Source of the DNA: Gammaproteobacteria bacterium
Lineage (GTDB): Bacteria; Pseudomonadota; Gammaproteobacteria; Chromatiales; Chromatiaceae
NCBI GenBank assembly: GCA_020630035.1
Contig: JAHDCB010000001.1
Coordinates: forward strand, 1 to 31,483
Reading direction: 5' to 3'
Length of the DNA stretch: 31,483 nt
The notes under the pieces were generated by a model. That model saw only the letters and a program-made list of their open reading frames with translations, searched no databases and was not told the origin of the DNA. Position numbers and translations under genes: made by a program. This document shows positions 1-6,691 of the stretch, in pieces (position 1 is the stretch's first letter; each line of letters opens with the position of its first letter).

Positions 1-1754
1 TACAGACCGGATTGATCGCGTCCCATCCGGTGGGCCCAAACAGGTCTTTGGATTCTGCTCAGCGTATAGTCTGCAGAAGCAGTGTGTAATATCCAATTCT
101 CAGTCTTCTCGGCATTACCGAGGCGTAGAGTCTGAGGTGATATTGTGGGCGCAATCGGCTGTATGGGTAAGGTTGTATCGACACCGGTCAGATACAGATT
201 ACCGTCATGCTGTAGCTGTAGAATCGGATTACCGGGCTGCGGATCAGACTGTAGCCTGATGCCGTCAGTATCTTCCACCAACCAGCAGTCGTGCGGTTGA
301 TATGTCTGGTTGTGTACCAGCGGCCAGTAATCAGTGGATAGCCCTGGTGGCCAGCGTTCCGGGTGTGTGCGTAATTCGTCGCTGTGGGCGGTTAAATATG
401 CTTGTGCGTAGGCAGGTCTGGTTTGGGTTCTGAGTAACAGATGTTGCCGGTGTCCGGTCTGTGTTAGCCAGTTTTTGGTCTCTGTTGGTGCACTACCTTG
501 TTGCTGATGGGTGCATAGCTGGTGAAAAAAATGGTCACAGGCTTGGATGACTGTTGTTGGTAAGGGTACGCCGAGTTGGTGTAGTCGGTGGACTTCTTCG
601 TGACGTGGTTCAGTCAACCAGTAGGTGTGGTGTGTCAGGATAGCTTTGCCGATCTGGTGTTTGATGGTATTCGGCAGTTCAGCAAAACGTTCCTGATAAT
701 AAATTGCTTGGTCAGTGCGCAGGCAATAACCATCATAAGTGGCGCACACAGCGGCGTGTTGCCACACGTTAACTTCAGCAGCGGCAGATATATCAGGAAA
801 CAACTGACGGATGGTGCGCAGTAGGGCAGGTTCGACAAACAAGGCAGCACTGGTGATGGCGAGTAACTGTTCTGTTTGCGTGCTGATCTGCGTGGCAGAG
901 ACGGTGCTGGTAGGAGGTACTTCGGGTTGAATCGGATACAGACCCGGTGCAGGCCCGGCTATCTTCAGGCTATACACAGGAATCTGTTGTGCCTGCCAGA
1001 TACGGCTGAGAGTTGCCCAGTGAGTGGTATGCAGCTCATCCAGCACCAGTATCGCATCTCCTGGCTGAGGTGACTGGTGTGGCGACTTATTCTGGTGTGT
1101 GGTGTCGGAGCCACGCCGAAAGGTGGTTAACCGGATACGTTGTGCGCCCAGCTGTTGTCGCACCTGGCGCTGGATTTGTGCATAGTCAGCCTGCAACGGG
1201 GTCAGCTCGCGTCGGGTATTGCGCCAGACGTGCAGCATACGCGGCCAGCGTGGTCGAGCCTGATATGGTATTCGCCGCAGAGGTTGCCCGCGTGCAATCT
1301 GGCGTACGGCACGTCTCAGATGCAGTCGGCGGCCTGGCTGTAAACGCCGTATCTGACGCAGCAGTTGGTTGTGGATCTGCGCATCACGACATAAGGTAGG
1401 TGATGCTAATCGTTCGCCCTCCTGCCCGCGCTGTAATAACGCATCAATAGGTGCCCGGTCTTCTTTTGTTGATTCTGGGTCAGGGATGACAGGTGGATTG
1501 ATCTGTTTGTCGACGTAATGTGTGACACACACAGCAGACCAGCGTCGTATATCGGTATCAGGTGCTGTTGTGTCGTGGCTGGTCTCATCAACCAGATGAT
1601 CAAGGGCGGGTGTCGGTAAAGCGGGTGTTTCTGTTATCGGAGCTGTCTGCCGGCGGCAAAATCCCAATTGTGCAGCCAGATGATCCGGATTTGCTTCCGG
1701 CAAGGTGACATGAGCCCGAATCAGATCGCCATACCAGCGTAAATGAGATGACAT
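1..1754 (-). CDS. Large vWA-like component of a MoxR ternary system, probably fused to a C-terminal FGS/CLec domain beyond the window edge (C-terminally truncated by the window, at least 584 aa; absent from the ORF track)
   Basis: Manual translation from ATG at 1754 (22 bp after the MoxR stop) is open to the edge: MSSHLRWYGDLIRAHVTLPEANPDHLAAQLGFCRR...PGRRLHLRRAVRQIARGQPLRRIPYQARPRWPRMLHVWRNTRRELTPLQADY...PGDAILVLDEL...LLAITSAALFVEPALLRTIRQLFP...LSRIQRPVWAHRMGRDQSGL(Y). The last motif parallels the N-terminus of the DGR target (PPTWATDWGEDIYGLY). The vWA assignment is from remembered family motifs. Confidence 0.8.
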   Translation of the reverse strand, partial: MSSHLRWYGDLIRAHVTLPEANPDHLAAQLGFCRRQTAPITETPALPTPALDHLVDETSHDTTAPDTDIRRWSAVCVTHYVDKQINPPVIPDPESTKEDRAPIDALLQRGQEGERLASPTLCRDAQIHNQLLRQIRRLQPGRRLHLRRAVRQIARGQPLRRIPYQARPRWPRMLHVWRNTRRELTPLQADYAQIQRQVRQQLGAQRIRLTTFRRGSDTTHQNKSPHQSPQPGDAILVLDELHTTHWATLSRIWQAQQIPVYSLKIAGPAPGLYPIQPEVPPTSTVSATQISTQTEQLLAITSAALFVEPALLRTIRQLFPDISAAAEVNVWQHAAVCATYDGYCLRTDQAIYYQERFAELPNTIKHQIGKAILTHHTYWLTEPRHEEVHRLHQLGVPLPTTVIQACDHFFHQLCTHQQQGSAPTETKNWLTQTGHRQHLLLRTQTRPAYAQAYLTAHSDELRTHPERWPPGLSTDYWPLVHNQTYQPHDCWLVEDTDGIRLQSDPQPGNPILQLQHDGNLYLTGVDTTLPIQPIAPTISPQTLRLGNAEKTENWILHTASADYTLSRIQRPVWAHRMGRDQSGL

Positions 1755-1776: not shown

Positions 1777-2736
1777 TTATCCATAGTGACTGCCAGTCTG
1801 GTGTTTGTCTAATACATATTGTTTGGCCTGATTAAATAATGCTCGCTGGGTCTTTGCATCCTGTGCCAGTGTGCTGAGTGCGCGTAATAAATCCAGATAT
1901 TCAGCCTGGCCCGGCAGCGGCAAGCCTTGGCTATGGGCATCGGCACGACTATGCCATAACTGGCTGGCGGCATCAGCGTACAGTGTTTCATCATGGATCG
2001 TGGTGGCAAAGTGTGCTCGACCACGCCGACTCAGCTGAGCGACAAAATCGGTTTCTTTGTCCGGCAGAGCAAGGGCCAGTACCCAGCAGCGGCGCACAAA
2101 GGCCGGCGGTAACTCGCGCTCTTCATTCGTGGTGATGATCACCAGTGGTGCAACCCCGGTCTGGCAGATGCGTTCCCGGCGATATGGCACCTGAAAACTG
2201 CCTTGTCCGAGAGTTTCCAGCAAGCCATTCGGTACGTCAGACTCCGCCTTGTCTATCTCGTCCAGTACGACCACCACGCCCGCCGGGGTGGTATCAGGGT
2301 GTGCTGGCCCGGTCGTGTTAAAGGCACAGGTCTGATGAGCCTGTGCGGCACTCGTCCAGTCAAGTGCCCACCATAATGGTCCCGGGCTCAGGTAACGAGC
2401 GGGTTGTAAGATTTGTGCCGCATCCGCAGTCGGGTTGTGTGCCAGTAATTGTGCTTCACCCAGCCGGGCGATGTCATCAAACGTATACAACAGATCGTGA
2501 CTTTCGGTGTGTGAATCGAGTGTTTTGTGGATCAGTTGCCAGCTCCAAGCCTTGGCCACGGCTGCTGCTAACTGAGTTTTACCAACACCGGGCTCACCAC
2601 GTACCAGCAAGGGACGGTTGGCGGCATAGGCGGCTCGTACGGCGAGTGCTGCCTCTGCTGTTAATTCATGCGGTAGTGGTTGTGCGTCATTGCCCAACTC
2701 AATCGTGTCGGTAGGTAATTCAGGTGGACGTGGCAT
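1777..2736 (-). CDS. MoxR-family AAA+ ATPase (ternary conflict-system type)
   Basis: Walker A GEPGVGKT, Walker B VVVVLDEIDK, LLYTFDDIARL, PGPLWWALDW and ITTNEERELPPAFVRRC. Its ATG overlaps the upstream stop (TGATG at 2734-2738). Confidence 0.9.
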   Translation of the reverse strand: MPRPPELPTDTIELGNDAQPLPHELTAEAALAVRAAYAANRPLLVRGEPGVGKTQLAAAVAKAWSWQLIHKTLDSHTESHDLLYTFDDIARLGEAQLLAHNPTADAAQILQPARYLSPGPLWWALDWTSAAQAHQTCAFNTTGPAHPDTTPAGVVVVLDEIDKAESDVPNGLLETLGQGSFQVPYRRERICQTGVAPLVIITTNEERELPPAFVRRCWVLALALPDKETDFVAQLSRRGRAHFATTIHDETLYADAASQLWHSRADAHSQGLPLPGQAEYLDLLRALSTLAQDAKTQRALFNQAKQYVLDKHQTGSHYG

Positions 2737-3926
2737 CAGTCACTCCGCTGCAGACGTTCAATTTGTTTGAGCATGCCATTCACATATTGTTGGCAGGCGC
2801 CATCTTCCATGAGTAATAAGCCGCTGATTGTACCGGTTCCCTGGTTGATCACGCTGAATATGAGCATTGCGGAAGACAGCCTTTTATCTATTTCACATAA
2901 TGCTGCAATCCAGGTTGGATCGGTAAAATAATTTTTTTCCACCTTAATGTAATAAGATAGTTTTTCTTCTGCTTTTTTGTCCTCCAGAATTTGTTGTATG
3001 GTTTGAATCGTATCTTCGATAGGCCCTATTTGTTGTGTGTTGTCTAATTCCTGATAGATTTGCAATAACAGACTTTTCATCGCCTGTTTTGTGCTATCGG
3101 TAATCCCGTAAGCGTGTGGTAGTGGGTAGACCGGTGTTTTGTTATCTTGTATATCTCTTTTTTCAACTTCAATCTCATTTTCGTATATTACGTTTTTGCT
3201 GACATCGATATGCGGGAAGGTCTTGGAAAGTCTACCATTGACAATGGGTAAAATAAAGTCATGGCCTATGTCGATCTCCAGGCCGGGTAATGTGGTATTC
3301 CCATCAGGTTTGCGTAAGCGGCTTTTTGCAGCGTCTGAATTAACAATCAATAATAATAAGGTACAAAATACATGCCACATCTGGTATCCCCAGTCGGCTT
3401 CAGGCCTTTTTCCTCGCTTAATCCAATCTTCGACGGTCTTGACGAACGCAGACTTAAACCGTAGCAGGCATGCCTGGATGTGATTTTTACTATCAGACGG
3501 CTTACGGACGATATTGTAAGCAATCTCTTTTGGCTCCGGCTTGCACCCCAGACGTTGTGAAAACTCATCCAATAACGTTTGTGTGACTTCAGCATAAGAT
3601 GGGTTTTTTATTGTGAGATAATCGACAATCCTGTTTTCAATCTCAATATAAAATTCGTTATCCAGTTTGATATCGTTTAAACCGGACAGGTCTTTGTCAT
3701 TTTTTATGGCTGCTGCAATGATTTTTTCTGGTTCGGACGTGCTGGAAACTTGTTCCTGAAGCACTTCAACTTTTACTTTAATAGTCTGTTGCTGTTTTGA
3801 ACCCCAGCTCTGGTACCATTGTTGCAGGTCTGCTTTTAACTCAGGGACAGGGTGTTGCAGTATTACCGTTTTCCGGCTGATTTCGAGAAAAGCAAGCAGT
3901 TGGTCAAAGAAGATACGCCAAGTCAT
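2736..3926 (-). CDS. Hypothetical 396-aa protein; positional third component of the MoxR-vWA module
   Basis: Long ORF with an AAGAGG RBS-like motif upstream, translationally coupled to MoxR. AT-rich: two sampled 60-mers are 28% and 33% GC versus 63% in a MoxR sample. No recognisable motif. Confidence 0.75.
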   Translation of the reverse strand: MTWRIFFDQLLAFLEISRKTVILQHPVPELKADLQQWYQSWGSKQQQTIKVKVEVLQEQVSSTSEPEKIIAAAIKNDKDLSGLNDIKLDNEFYIEIENRIVDYLTIKNPSYAEVTQTLLDEFSQRLGCKPEPKEIAYNIVRKPSDSKNHIQACLLRFKSAFVKTVEDWIKRGKRPEADWGYQMWHVFCTLLLLIVNSDAAKSRLRKPDGNTTLPGLEIDIGHDFILPIVNGRLSKTFPHIDVSKNVIYENEIEVEKRDIQDNKTPVYPLPHAYGITDSTKQAMKSLLLQIYQELDNTQQIGPIEDTIQTIQQILEDKKAEEKLSYYIKVEKNYFTDPTWIAALCEIDKRLSSAMLIFSVINQGTGTISGLLLMEDGACQQYVNGMLKQIERLQRSD

Positions 3927-4128
3927 ATCACGGCCTCTTATTCTGAAATATGATAAATACCCATTGGTATCAGGGCCACGCAGCTCATCAGCATTGTGGT
4001 TTTTTTACAGTAGTCGCCAGGCCAACAGGCTTTCAGCTTGATGCTTACTCACCGGCTGGCAGGCATTTACTTTTTGCCGACATCTTGTCGGGCAGGATAA
4101 CTGTCTGGTCAGATCAGGTTGATCTGAG

Positions 4129-4242
4129 CTGGGGCAATCCGGAAGCCCTGGTTGTTGTTCCGGTTGTCGGGCCTGTTCCTGTTGCGGTAGGCTGAACGCA
4201 ACCTCCTGGCATTGTTGATCCAGGAGCCACCGCGCACCACGC
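4129..4242 (-). ncRNA. DGR template repeat (TR)
   Basis: Begins 19 bp after the RT stop. In the target frame it reads VVRGGSWINNARRLRSAYRNRNRPDNRNNNQGFRIAP, with 8 AAC/AAT codons and 27 adenines. It aligns ungapped to 5893-6006 (offset 1764). Confidence 0.96.
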
Positions 4243-4261
4243 CCGGCGTGATTGCTGACAG

Positions 4262-5281
4262 TCACCCGATGCTATCAGACACGAAATCCGGGTATTTTTG
4301 CAAGTGGTTTTGTCGCCAGGCACGGCTGTCTGCATGTTGTGTCATGGCGTATACCGAATTTAACGCTTGTTGTAGCGCCAGGTCATCCAGTATGCCTTGC
4401 TGCCATTGTTGTTCGTAAGTGGTACGTAATGTGTGATAACGACGTTTTTTGCGGGGACTCAGGCGGATGGCACCTGGCAGAATGCGATAGCCACAATAGC
4501 TGACGCCCTGACGGCTGCGATTGATAACAGGGTTTGGTTTGATCAGCAATTGTCTGTGTTGGTGCAGATAGTCGGTGAGTTGTTTTAGTGTATCGCGTGC
4601 GGCTATTTTGTCATGGCACCACCAGATGATATCGTCCATGTAACGCACCTGGGCGCGTACAGCCGATTGCTCAATCAGATAGCGGTCGGCACCACTTAGG
4701 TAGAGATTGGCAAAATGTTGGGAGGTTAAGGAACCAATCGGTAATCCTTTGCCTGGTTGCGCCTGATAGCCGTGGATAATTCGGGTTAACAGGTACAAAA
4801 ATGGTTGGCCTTTGAAATGCCGCGCCAGCAATTTCAGTAGGCTGGCATGATCCACACTCGGAAAATAACCTGCGATATCTACCTTGACGTACCAGTCAAA
4901 CCGTTGCAGATTACGTTGTACTTGTGTGACTGCACGATGCACCCCCTTGCCAGGACGGCAGGCATAGCAACCGGGTAGCAGCAGACGCTCAAAGATAGAC
5001 TCTGTTTGGTTCAGAATAGCATGATGTAAGACCCGGTCTGCAAAACAGGGGGCATGAATCAGGCGTTTTTTCGGATCTCGAATGTAAAAGCTGCGATAGG
5101 CATTATGTGGTACCTGATCTTGCAAAATGGCAGTGCTGAGGTGCGCGAGTTGGTGATCCAGGTCAGCGAGAAAAGCAGCAACATCCGGTCTGTGTCGCTT
5201 GCTGCGTGCTGCCTTGTATGTTGCCTGTAGCAGGTTGGTGTAGCTGGCGATCTCAGTCAGTGAGATGGCGTGTCGGCGCAT
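4262..5281 (-). CDS. DGR reverse transcriptase (339 aa)
   Basis: IRDPKKRLIHAPCFADRVLHHA, YACRPGKG, VKVDIAGYFPSVDH, GLPIGSLTSQHFANLYL (DGR GxxxSQ signature) and RYMDD catalytic motif. Compact, with no maturase or endonuclease extension. Confidence 0.96.
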   Translation of the reverse strand: MRRHAISLTEIASYTNLLQATYKAARSKRHRPDVAAFLADLDHQLAHLSTAILQDQVPHNAYRSFYIRDPKKRLIHAPCFADRVLHHAILNQTESIFERLLLPGCYACRPGKGVHRAVTQVQRNLQRFDWYVKVDIAGYFPSVDHASLLKLLARHFKGQPFLYLLTRIIHGYQAQPGKGLPIGSLTSQHFANLYLSGADRYLIEQSAVRAQVRYMDDIIWWCHDKIAARDTLKQLTDYLHQHRQLLIKPNPVINRSRQGVSYCGYRILPGAIRLSPRKKRRYHTLRTTYEQQWQQGILDDLALQQALNSVYAMTQHADSRAWRQNHLQKYPDFVSDSIG

Positions 5282-5744
5282 GTTGAGTGCTTCCGGAGCT
5301 GGTTTGCTGCAAACAGTTTAAAAAGGCAACACCATATTTTTCTAAGCGGGCTGTACCGACACCCTCAATTTCGCCCAGTTGTGTCAGGTTGCGGACTCGT
5401 TGCGTGACCATAGTGGCCAGTTGTTCGTGGGTAAACAAGGCATAGGCTGGTACACCTTCCTGTTGCGCCAGGTTCTTGCGCAGACTTCTTAGTTCGGCAT
5501 AAGTTGTAAAGTCTTCCGGGCTTAACACTTCCCGGTAATCAATCCGGTCACGCCTGGATGAGCGTTGCTGTGGTGGGGTATCACTTGTGATATAGGTGAC
5601 ACAGATTGCCCAGAAGCTTTCCAGTCCTTGACTGACCAAATGTTTTTCTACGGTGACAACGCGATGCTGGTGACAGAATGTATTTAACAGTTTCTGGCCG
5701 TCATCTGGTGTTACCGCATCAACCTTGAAAAATGCAAATGGCAT
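5253..5744 (-). CDS. HRDC-domain DGR accessory protein (163 aa; start reassigned to ATG 5744)
   Basis: C-terminal HRDC pattern YAELRSLRKNLAQQEGVPAYALFTHEQLATMV...LTQLGEIEGVGTARLEKYGVAFL. The ORF-track extension to 5858 runs through non-coding hairpins. The 3' end overlaps the RT start by 29 bp. Confidence 0.85.
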   Translation of the reverse strand: MPFAFFKVDAVTPDDGQKLLNTFCHQHRVVTVEKHLVSQGLESFWAICVTYITSDTPPQQRSSRRDRIDYREVLSPEDFTTYAELRSLRKNLAQQEGVPAYALFTHEQLATMVTQRVRNLTQLGEIEGVGTARLEKYGVAFLNCLQQTSSGSTQHAPTRHLTD

Positions 5745-5775
5745 GGCAAAACCTGGCAAGACGCAAAAATTTTTT

Positions 5776-5880
5776 GAAGGCACCGCTATCACGGTGCCTT
5801 CTTGTTTGTTGTTGCTGACATGCGCGCGGCTCCGCCGCTGCTGGTCAGACAACAACAAATCTATCGCGGCTCCGCCGCTG
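5776..5880 (-). promoter_or_regulatory. Post-VR hairpin/cruciform cluster (candidate DGR target-recognition elements)
   Basis: Two copies of GCGGC-GGA-GCCGC on the minus strand (5866-5878 and 5826-5838) inside a 16-bp direct repeat (5865-5880 and 5825-5840). An imperfect inverted repeat 5805-5819/5844-5859 encloses the second copy. A perfect 10-bp inverted repeat lies at 5776-5785/5792-5801. Confidence 0.7.
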
Positions 5881-6691
5881 ACCTGACCTGACCTGGGGCA
5901 ATCCGGAAGCCCAGGCTGCCGAACCGGTCGTCGGGCCCGCCCCTGCTGCGGCAGGCCGAACGCAACCCCCCGGCAACGCCGATCCAGGAGCCACCGCGCA
6001 CCACGCGATACTCGCCCGTTGCAGGGCCTGTGGGATCCACAGACTGTGATACATCATATTCTGCGTACCAGTCGGCACACCATTCCCATACATTGCCGTG
6101 CATCTGATATAAACCCCACGGATTTGCAGGTAATGCCTTAACCGGTATAGTTTGTTCCCGGTACTCACCCTTTTGTCCATCGGTATACGGATAATTACCA
6201 TCATAATTGGCTTGATGCGTCGTGATTGTCTGACCAAATGAAAATGGTGTGGTAGTGCCGGCCCGACAGGCATATTCCCACTGTGCTTCAGTGGGTAGTC
6301 CGACAGCTAGCTCGGGTACCCGGGCATTCAGTTGTTGCAAAAAGATGTGTACATGGTCCCAACTAATTTGTTCGACCGGGTTTTGCAGGTCATGCTGAAA
6401 ATGGGCCGGGTTGTCACCGGTCACTGCCTGCCAGAGGGCTTGTGTGCACGCTGTGTCGGCCAGCCAGTAGCCTTGACTCAGGGTCACCAGATGTGGTGTT
6501 TCATCAGTATTGCGTTCGGGTTCATCTGGTGGTGATCCCATCATGAATCGGCCTGGTGGTATCCAGCGGCAGCGTTGGTGTGCTGTTCCAAGCATAAAGC
6601 CAGCATACAGGCCGTAGATATCCTCACCCCAGTCGGTTGCCCAGGTGGGTGGAAAGGGTTCTGGCCAGATAAATGTTCTGGTGTTGGTCAT
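5861..6691 (-). CDS. DGR target protein, FGE-sulfatase (FGS)/CLec-fold domain, 276 aa, no signal peptide
   Basis: WIPPGRFMMGSP, ETPHLVTL, LPTEAQWEYACRAGT, ANPWGLYQMHGNVWEWCADW and RVVRGGSW...GFRIAP. The VR encodes the last about 37 conserved-frame residues. Start reassigned to ATG 6691, 8 bp after the trkH stop; the ORF-track start at 6778 overlaps trkH. Confidence 0.93.
   Translation of the reverse strand: MTNTRTFIWPEPFPPTWATDWGEDIYGLYAGFMLGTAHQRCRWIPPGRFMMGSPPDEPERNTDETPHLVTLSQGYWLADTACTQALWQAVTGDNPAHFQHDLQNPVEQISWDHVHIFLQQLNARVPELAVGLPTEAQWEYACRAGTTTPFSFGQTITTHQANYDGNYPYTDGQKGEYREQTIPVKALPANPWGLYQMHGNVWEWCADWYAEYDVSQSVDPTGPATGEYRVVRGGSWIGVAGGLRSACRSRGGPDDRFGSLGFRIAPGQVRSAAEPR
5893..6006 (-). 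repeat. DGR variable repeat (VR)
   Basis: Matches the TR at 95 of 114 positions. All 19 differences are at TR adenines (15 A>G, 4 A>T), giving 13 amino-acid changes: VVRGGSWIGVAGGLRSACRSRGGPDDRFGSLGFRIAP. Confidence 0.96.

Follow-up and report, generated by a model that had tools for sequence, protein, structure and literature searches.

The question raised by the stretch of gammaproteobacterial DNA analysed here (31,483 nt of contig JAHDCB010000001.1, assembly GCA_020630035.1; hereafter the window) is what lies beyond its left edge. There, a long reading frame termed P0001 is cut off as it appears to begin a lectin-type domain of the FGE-sulfatase/CLec class, and upstream on the same strand resides a diversity-generating retroelement (DGR) comprising a reverse transcriptase (RT), a template repeat (TR) and a short target that carries a variable repeat (VR). 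P0001 is best explained as the long member of a defence-like module of three genes, coupled to a MoxR-type ATPase and located directly downstream of a complete DGR. With respect to its missing 3′ end, the balance tips slightly toward a stub that lacks a VR, as in the ortholog P0002, in which case the free short target would be the only receptor diversified by the DGR in the window.

P0001 (3..1754, minus strand) is the partial coding sequence of a long “sensor/target-type” protein. From the ATG at position 1754 its frame proceeds to base 3 without a stop across 584 codons, just as an earlier note on this DNA had described a frame open to base 1. The visible C-terminus reads ...RPVWAHRMGRDQSGL and is followed by the incomplete codon TA_, which in the ortholog is TAT (Tyr). 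Because base 1 of the window is also base 1 of contig C126 of the source assembly, a metagenome-assembled genome (MAG) of 214 contigs, ~1.6 Mb and 93.7% completeness, the 3′ end of the gene has been severed by the end of the assembly.

The sole close homolog of P0001 among 5.8 billion proteins is P0002, which is 81% identical and is located on L003, a 93.7-kb metagenome contig syntenic with the window. Its frame can be read from the same ATG as that of P0001, which gives P0002 a true length of 717 aa, and the first 74 aa of P0001 are conserved in it. At a synonymous divergence (dS) of ~0.6, the ratio of nonsynonymous to synonymous substitution (dN/dS) between P0001 and P0002 is 0.17 for the whole gene and 0.23 for the last 60 codons of P0001, and constraint is present along the entire gene. 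P0001 is a real gene under purifying selection. Between the window genome and this relative, the neighboring ATPase gene has a ratio of 0.10 and a 396-aa open reading frame (ORF) one of 0.34; the short target stands at 0.18 and TrkH at 0.03. In addition, a second strain that is ~8% divergent occurs in the source sample (window 66-293, runs X1 and X2), with 9 of 15 variants being synonymous. Since this strain and L003 have just 7 of the 15 variant letters in common, the P0001 gene exists in at least three lineages.

At the very edge of the window, residues 570-584 of P0001 (3..47, minus strand) form the motif PxWAxxxGRDxxGL, whose counterpart in the known DGR target is PPTWATDWGEDIYGLY. An exhaustive search retrieves 347 relatives of P0001, mostly 850-1250 aa in length and sporadic in occurrence, being present in 13 of 400 genomes that were sampled within the class. 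In an alignment of 39 family members the motif takes the form PxWAxxxGRDxYGL, with W573 and G583 nearly invariant, and the consensus runs from it directly into a complete FGE-sulfatase domain, which makes the motif a conserved landmark of the family that opens the FGE/CLec domain. The Pfam FGE-sulfatase domain is detected in 30 of these 39 sequences, and a target-type FGE domain is found by phmmer in 122 of 151 retrieved proteins (query counted), the remainder being mostly short fragments. The visible part of the domain in P0001 amounts to its first 12-15 residues before the contig ends. An FGE profile built from the family matches residues 563-585 weakly (E 0.7), and neither P0001 nor P0002 is matched by Pfam FGE-sulfatase (PF03781) even at E<10, the gathering score not being reached. 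Judged from these alignments, the P0001 frame is entering a predicted FGE/CLec-type domain. The earlier note had proposed as much from the spacing of the edge motif, which it likened to that of the known target; both points hold, given the conservation of the motif across the family and the continuation of the ortholog into an FGE half-domain.

P0002 extends 136 aa beyond the point at which the window ends, and this extension aligns to residues 44-181 of the DGR target with 38% identity (E 9e-28). The protein then terminates in the middle of the domain, at a stop codon that overlaps with a PFK gene read convergently. In no frame does a trace of the C-terminal half of the FGE domain survive, nor is there a TR-like or VR-like segment at the 3′ end of P0002. 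The remaining half retains 52% of 62 strongly conserved columns, as compared with 84-98% in typical members, and has lost the EWEYAxRAG motif. By sequence comparison, the FGE part of P0002 is a degenerate N-terminal half-domain. That its 136 codons have stayed open, together with the purifying selection on the visible part of the gene, suggests that P0002 persists stably as a truncated protein. Several derived departures from the family are also common to P0001 and P0002, namely N179, an LVLDE stretch with a deletion behind it, and GRDQSGL. When L003 is compared with the same-genus genome G001, homology returns 4 nt past the P0002 stop codon, and thus the edge of the island in L003 coincides with that stop.

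The interval between TrkH and PFK in which this island resides is a variable hotspot (from ~6620 leftwards in the window; L003:6655-11935; G001:C2:26325-50700). Three same-genus genomes lack the entire DGR/MoxR island, which measures 5.3 kb in L003; the corresponding place in G001 is occupied by ~24 kb of unrelated content.

The DGR in the window is itself sound. Read along the minus strand, the genes and repeat follow one another as short CLec target, HRDC accessory, RT, TR, 396-aa candidate effector, MoxR-like ATPase and P0001. The short CLec-only target (5861..6691, minus strand; Pfam FGE-sulfatase E 7e-42), whose ortholog is called as a protein of 276 aa, has its VR at the extreme C-terminus (5884-6006), as identified by a repeat match to the TR, and a GC-rich hairpin at 5776-5880 comes after the VR. 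It is followed by the HRDC-domain accessory protein (5253..5858, minus strand; Pfam HRDC E 5.5e-15), the RT (4262..5281, minus strand; Pfam RVT_1 E 5.8e-14, PADLOC RT E 2.3e-39) and the TR (4120..4242, minus strand), a 123-nt repeat shared with the VR. TR and VR differ by 21 mismatches, 20 of which fall at TR adenines. The closest RT found, from genome G365, is 48% identical. TR and RT are located 2.4-2.5 kb upstream of P0001 on the same strand, and the gene is linked to both.

In L003 this core has been removed. A segment corresponding to window 4029-5798 (1,770 bp, spanning most of the HRDC gene, the RT and the TR) is replaced by 31 nt at L003:7477-7507. The VR and downstream hairpins of the short target are intact, and 15 of the 23 differences between this VR and the window TR are at adenines. 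Because the VR still differs from the window TR mainly at adenines, the short target of L003 is frozen and orphaned. A crossover between VR and TR was considered as the route of RT loss and is excluded by the exact alignment, in which a 1,770-bp block is swapped for 31 nt.

The reading toward which we lean, that P0001 ends in a VR-less stub like that of P0002, is consistent with searches of the MAG. The earlier note had proposed that the TR be compared with the whole genome for remote VRs; when this is done by blastn (word 7) against the entire assembly, the matches are the TR itself and the VR of the known target, and no second TR-like copy appears. Similarly, tblastn with the target and with P0001, blastn with the locus of the relative, and a six-frame HMM search find only the target and the stub at the edge and no other FGE fragment in the MAG. 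A weak tblastn match on contig C63 was rejected as such a fragment, as it corresponds to elongation factor G. Beyond the assembly, four public runs give 2-10x depth here, with contigs of 170-780 nt; two of these contigs extend past base 1, one of them by 228 nt. Two metagenome scans, by a protein pattern and by an exact 26-mer spanning the edge, gave no match, and neither did a search among short protein fragments with the C-terminus of the ortholog as query, nor look-ups of identical copies of the ATPase and of P0001 in other assemblies.

Several observations weigh against a stub. The ortholog in L003 is followed by genes for PFK, CinA, GGT, ferredoxin, CoaD-like, RsmD-like, HemE, HemY, HemX and DnaA-like proteins, and a search of the MAG for these ten genes finds none of them. 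It follows that at least 10 kb adjoining the window is unassembled or unbinned, so that little can be concluded from the absence of a second VR from the MAG. At least one complete FGE domain is present in nearly all full-length family members, and in comparable loci from the literature the long protein is usually a second target (Doré et al., 2024; PNAS; PMC10907252). The RT and TR of the window genome are apparently intact, whereas the relative has lost its own. Moreover, a dS of ~0.6 leaves time enough for P0002 to have been truncated and to have decayed after the two lineages split; the notion that decay of the half-domain necessarily predates the split was given up, since this divergence allows for lineage-specific decay. 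Because the relative that lacks the second half of the domain has also lost the DGR core, the one loss may be connected with the other, and both may be confined to the L003 lineage. Finally, the local TR of G009 matches both FGE domains of its large protein, with 16 of 21 and 18 of 25 mismatches at adenines, and the TR of G365 matches the FGE end of its large protein, with 14 of 21 mismatches at adenines. L032 and L034 are left aside in this comparison, as their TR/VR patterns were ambiguous.

In G365, tandem repeats of ~93 nt occur where the contig with the RT locus ends (L061:3137-3512) and likewise at the end of the contig with the large-protein locus (L057:10951-11175). These repeats probably account for the division of the two loci over separate contigs, and suggest that the RT and large-protein loci are adjacent in G365.

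The observations set against a stub are also those that speak for a second VR. Here, P0001 would run ~0.7 kb further and complete its CLec domain, and a VR at the end of that domain would be rewritten by the TR at 4120-4242, such that a free receptor and an ATPase-coupled receptor would both be diversified. This arrangement is a serious possibility, although we hold it to be somewhat less probable than its converse. A complete FGE domain is the norm for the family, two such targets are precisely what the published clade 5A layout contains (PMC10907252), and adenine-biased matches to the large protein are seen in G009 and G365. The DGR looks intact, with a clean mutational pattern in the VR of its short target; purifying selection acts on P0001 right up to the edge; and the loss of the second domain half in the relative, which is also without the RT cassette, may be confined to that lineage. 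Set against this are P0002 itself, the only close ortholog, which has no VR and whose half-domain is degenerate, and a MAG that, at 93.7% completeness, yields neither a second TR-like copy nor a further FGE fragment.

A complete FGE domain need not be a substrate of the TR. P0001 might conceivably continue into one that is not, or is no longer, diversified, and would then serve as a fixed lectin-fold sensor. Precedents for such an outcome can be seen among the relatives. Three VR-like segments in the large-protein locus of G034 differ from the only DGR TR of that genome at all four bases, and so are not current substrates of that TR; at seven to eight related loci neither a local TR nor an RT within 10 kb is present; and a close RT match (E <= 1e-20) is not found in G311, G137 or G251. 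In the window genome, however, a functional-looking TR and RT reside 2.4 kb away, and P0002 points to truncation rather than to a complete fixed domain, which together make this outcome very improbable. The G034 locus is unusual in its own right, as its triad contains three FGE domains and the only DGR RT and TR in the genome are 1.2 Mb distant (L015 versus L017).

Between the TR and P0001 are the two other genes of the proposed module. The 396-aa ORF (2736..3926, minus strand) is a candidate effector that occupies the slot of TIR or trypsin-like proteins in relatives. Pfam, NCBIfam and PADLOC give no family match for it at E<=0.01, and no VMAP/iSTAND domain is found in it. The MoxR-like AAA+ ATPase (1777..2736, minus strand; 319 aa) is recognized by Pfam AAA_5 (E 1.1e-11), while its match to the bpMoxR profile (E 0.002) lies under the cut-off of that profile. 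The ATPase gene ends 22 nt upstream of the P0001 ATG.

The same triad of a variable first gene, an AAA_5 ATPase and a large FGE protein recurs at about ten loci in distant gammaproteobacteria (G009, G034, G045, L032, L034 and L056-L060). At the first position of the triad, L034 encodes a TIR protein and G034 a trypsin-like one; an HRDC-accessory-like ORF and a short FGE protein often come after the triad. In most relatives examined, the short FGE gene lies downstream of the large one and no RT is nearby. The nearest named relatives of the host gammaproteobacterium are Sedimenticola, Ca. Thiodiazotropha and Chromatiales.

At four related loci with no RT within 10 kb, an ORF is situated between the large and short FGE genes (L014:7478-8392, L016:3543-4109, L056:7541-7717 and L060:11810-12070). 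These intervening ORFs are weakly similar to IS200/Y1-transposase, resemble the HRDC accessory in its N-terminal part, or do both. In G045 (L016:8312-8922), a 66-nt unit is repeated seven times in tandem within an ORF situated downstream of the FGE cluster.

The N-terminal ~570 aa of P0001 have no match in Pfam, NCBIfam, PADLOC or a sequence-profile search of the PDB. An AlphaFold2 model built from a 45-sequence alignment (pLDDT 79, pTM 0.69) predicts three regions ahead of the FGE/CLec domain: a doubly-wound alpha/beta domain that is vWA-like at best (residues 120-285; 900..1397, minus strand), a helical domain with pLDDT mostly >85 (residues 286-487; 294..899, minus strand) and an all-beta region modelled as strands (residues 488-569; 48..293, minus strand).

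The earlier note had placed a vWA domain at the N-terminus, an assignment that the following comparisons do not demonstrate. No sequence match to a vWA domain is obtained for any of the 39 family members. Structural comparison of the alpha/beta domain with vWA and I-domains gives Z 6.0-6.2 (VIA-align), values no higher than the Z 6-7 obtained with unrelated alpha/beta folds (HGPRT, periplasmic-binding). Within this domain the family displays the motifs hhhhhD..LxPxWxD and hhhhhSDLG, which in sequence faintly resemble vWA strands; D179 and D190 are conserved in the family without the Ser/Thr of the metal ion-dependent adhesion site (MIDAS). At these positions P0001 has LVLDE and N179, the latter an Asn in place of the first Asp. 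A cluster in AFDB named “VWA containing CoxE family protein” matches P0001 at E 2e-8, and AFDB neighbors outside the family also include GUN4-, TIR- and kinase-linked proteins, a repertoire reminiscent of that of the vWA components of ternary systems.

The helical domain invites a different comparison. Residues 288-431 (window 462-893) align with the winged-helix/arm element of STAND ATPases, scoring Z 9.1 (6mfv_A) and 8.7 (8bob_D, MalT), so that the predicted structure bears a marginal likeness to this element. P0001 itself has no NTPase domain despite this arm-like helical region.

Published models offer an analogy for how the module might operate. On this view, the long protein would act as a sensor in which a ligand is perceived via the CLec tip, and the MoxR-like ATPase would relay or gate the resulting signal to the gene in the variable first position, an effector-type neighbor. 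If P0001 ends as P0002 does, a more elaborate scheme can be imagined, in which the long sensor of this small-genome lineage has lost its lectin-fold tip and survives under purifying selection as a “headless” protein, ending in the conserved beta-extension plus a half-domain, while the short, DGR-diversified CLec protein recognizes the ligand in trans. This split sensor would derive from the usual fused one and would persist even where, as in the relative, the RT cassette has been deleted. We regard such a division of labor as unlikely.

Irrespective of the manner of sensing, the two sister lineages show a successive dismantling of the system, with the RT cassette deleted and the lectin domain of the sensor halved. 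Purifying selection has meanwhile been maintained on the ATPase, the N-terminal module of the sensor and the candidate effector, a pattern hinting that ongoing diversification may be dispensable for the module to work.

Comparison with known systems places the locus among familiar arrangements. Treponema denticola TvpA exemplifies the DGR variable proteins of the FGE-sulfatase/CLec subtype. The short target in the window (5861-6691) is a classical member of this group, with its VR at the extreme C-terminus, whereas only the first 12-15 residues of the corresponding domain are visible in P0001.

A second point of reference is provided by the MoxR-vWA (VMAP/iSTAND) ternary conflict systems, in which vWA components can be fused to FGS, and ~80% of which are DGR-linked in cyanobacteria and gammaproteobacteria in the case of VMAP (Kaur, Burroughs, Iyer and Aravind, 2020; eLife; PMC7159879). 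The three-gene logic of these systems recurs at the locus, where a MoxR-like ATPase of the AAA+ class is joined by a large protein with a predicted C-terminal FGS/CLec domain and by a third, variable gene (PMC7159879). The frequent association with DGRs, the all-beta region ahead of the FGS domain, and the GUN4, TIR and “VWA CoxE” labels carried by the AFDB structural neighbors of P0001 are further resemblances. It differs from them in that P0001 has no detectable vWA domain or MIDAS motif (DxSxS...T...D), the 396-aa protein has no VMAP domain, and the bpMoxR match falls under its cut-off.

The closest likeness in layout is to the DGRs of clade 5A, for which the DGR 8 of Thiohalocapsa PB-PSB1 serves as an example. 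These commonly place a MoxR-like ATPase just upstream of a target in whose N-terminal extension no domains are predicted, and their common layout includes two targets, one short and CLec-only and the other long, with frequent TIR- or trypsin-type neighbors (Doré et al., 2024; PMC10907252). The locus in the window departs from this plan in that its short target and HRDC-RT-TR core are upstream of the triad, its host genome is small (~1.6 Mb), and the CLec domain of the long protein is halved in its nearest relative. The window likewise has an ATPase directly before a long extension devoid of recognizable domains, a short CLec-only target with a VR, effector-type neighbors (TIR or trypsin in relatives of the locus) and a gammaproteobacterial host near the Chromatiales/Sedimenticola group. 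Given the common organization of clade 5A, a single RT and TR serving both a free and a tethered receptor is a known arrangement (PMC10907252). Should P0001 prove to carry a second VR, the locus would therefore be one more case of the published layout, with one DGR tuning a free and an ATPase-coupled putative antigen sensor, in a compact form and in a bacterium of ~1.6 Mb, and would introduce no new principle.

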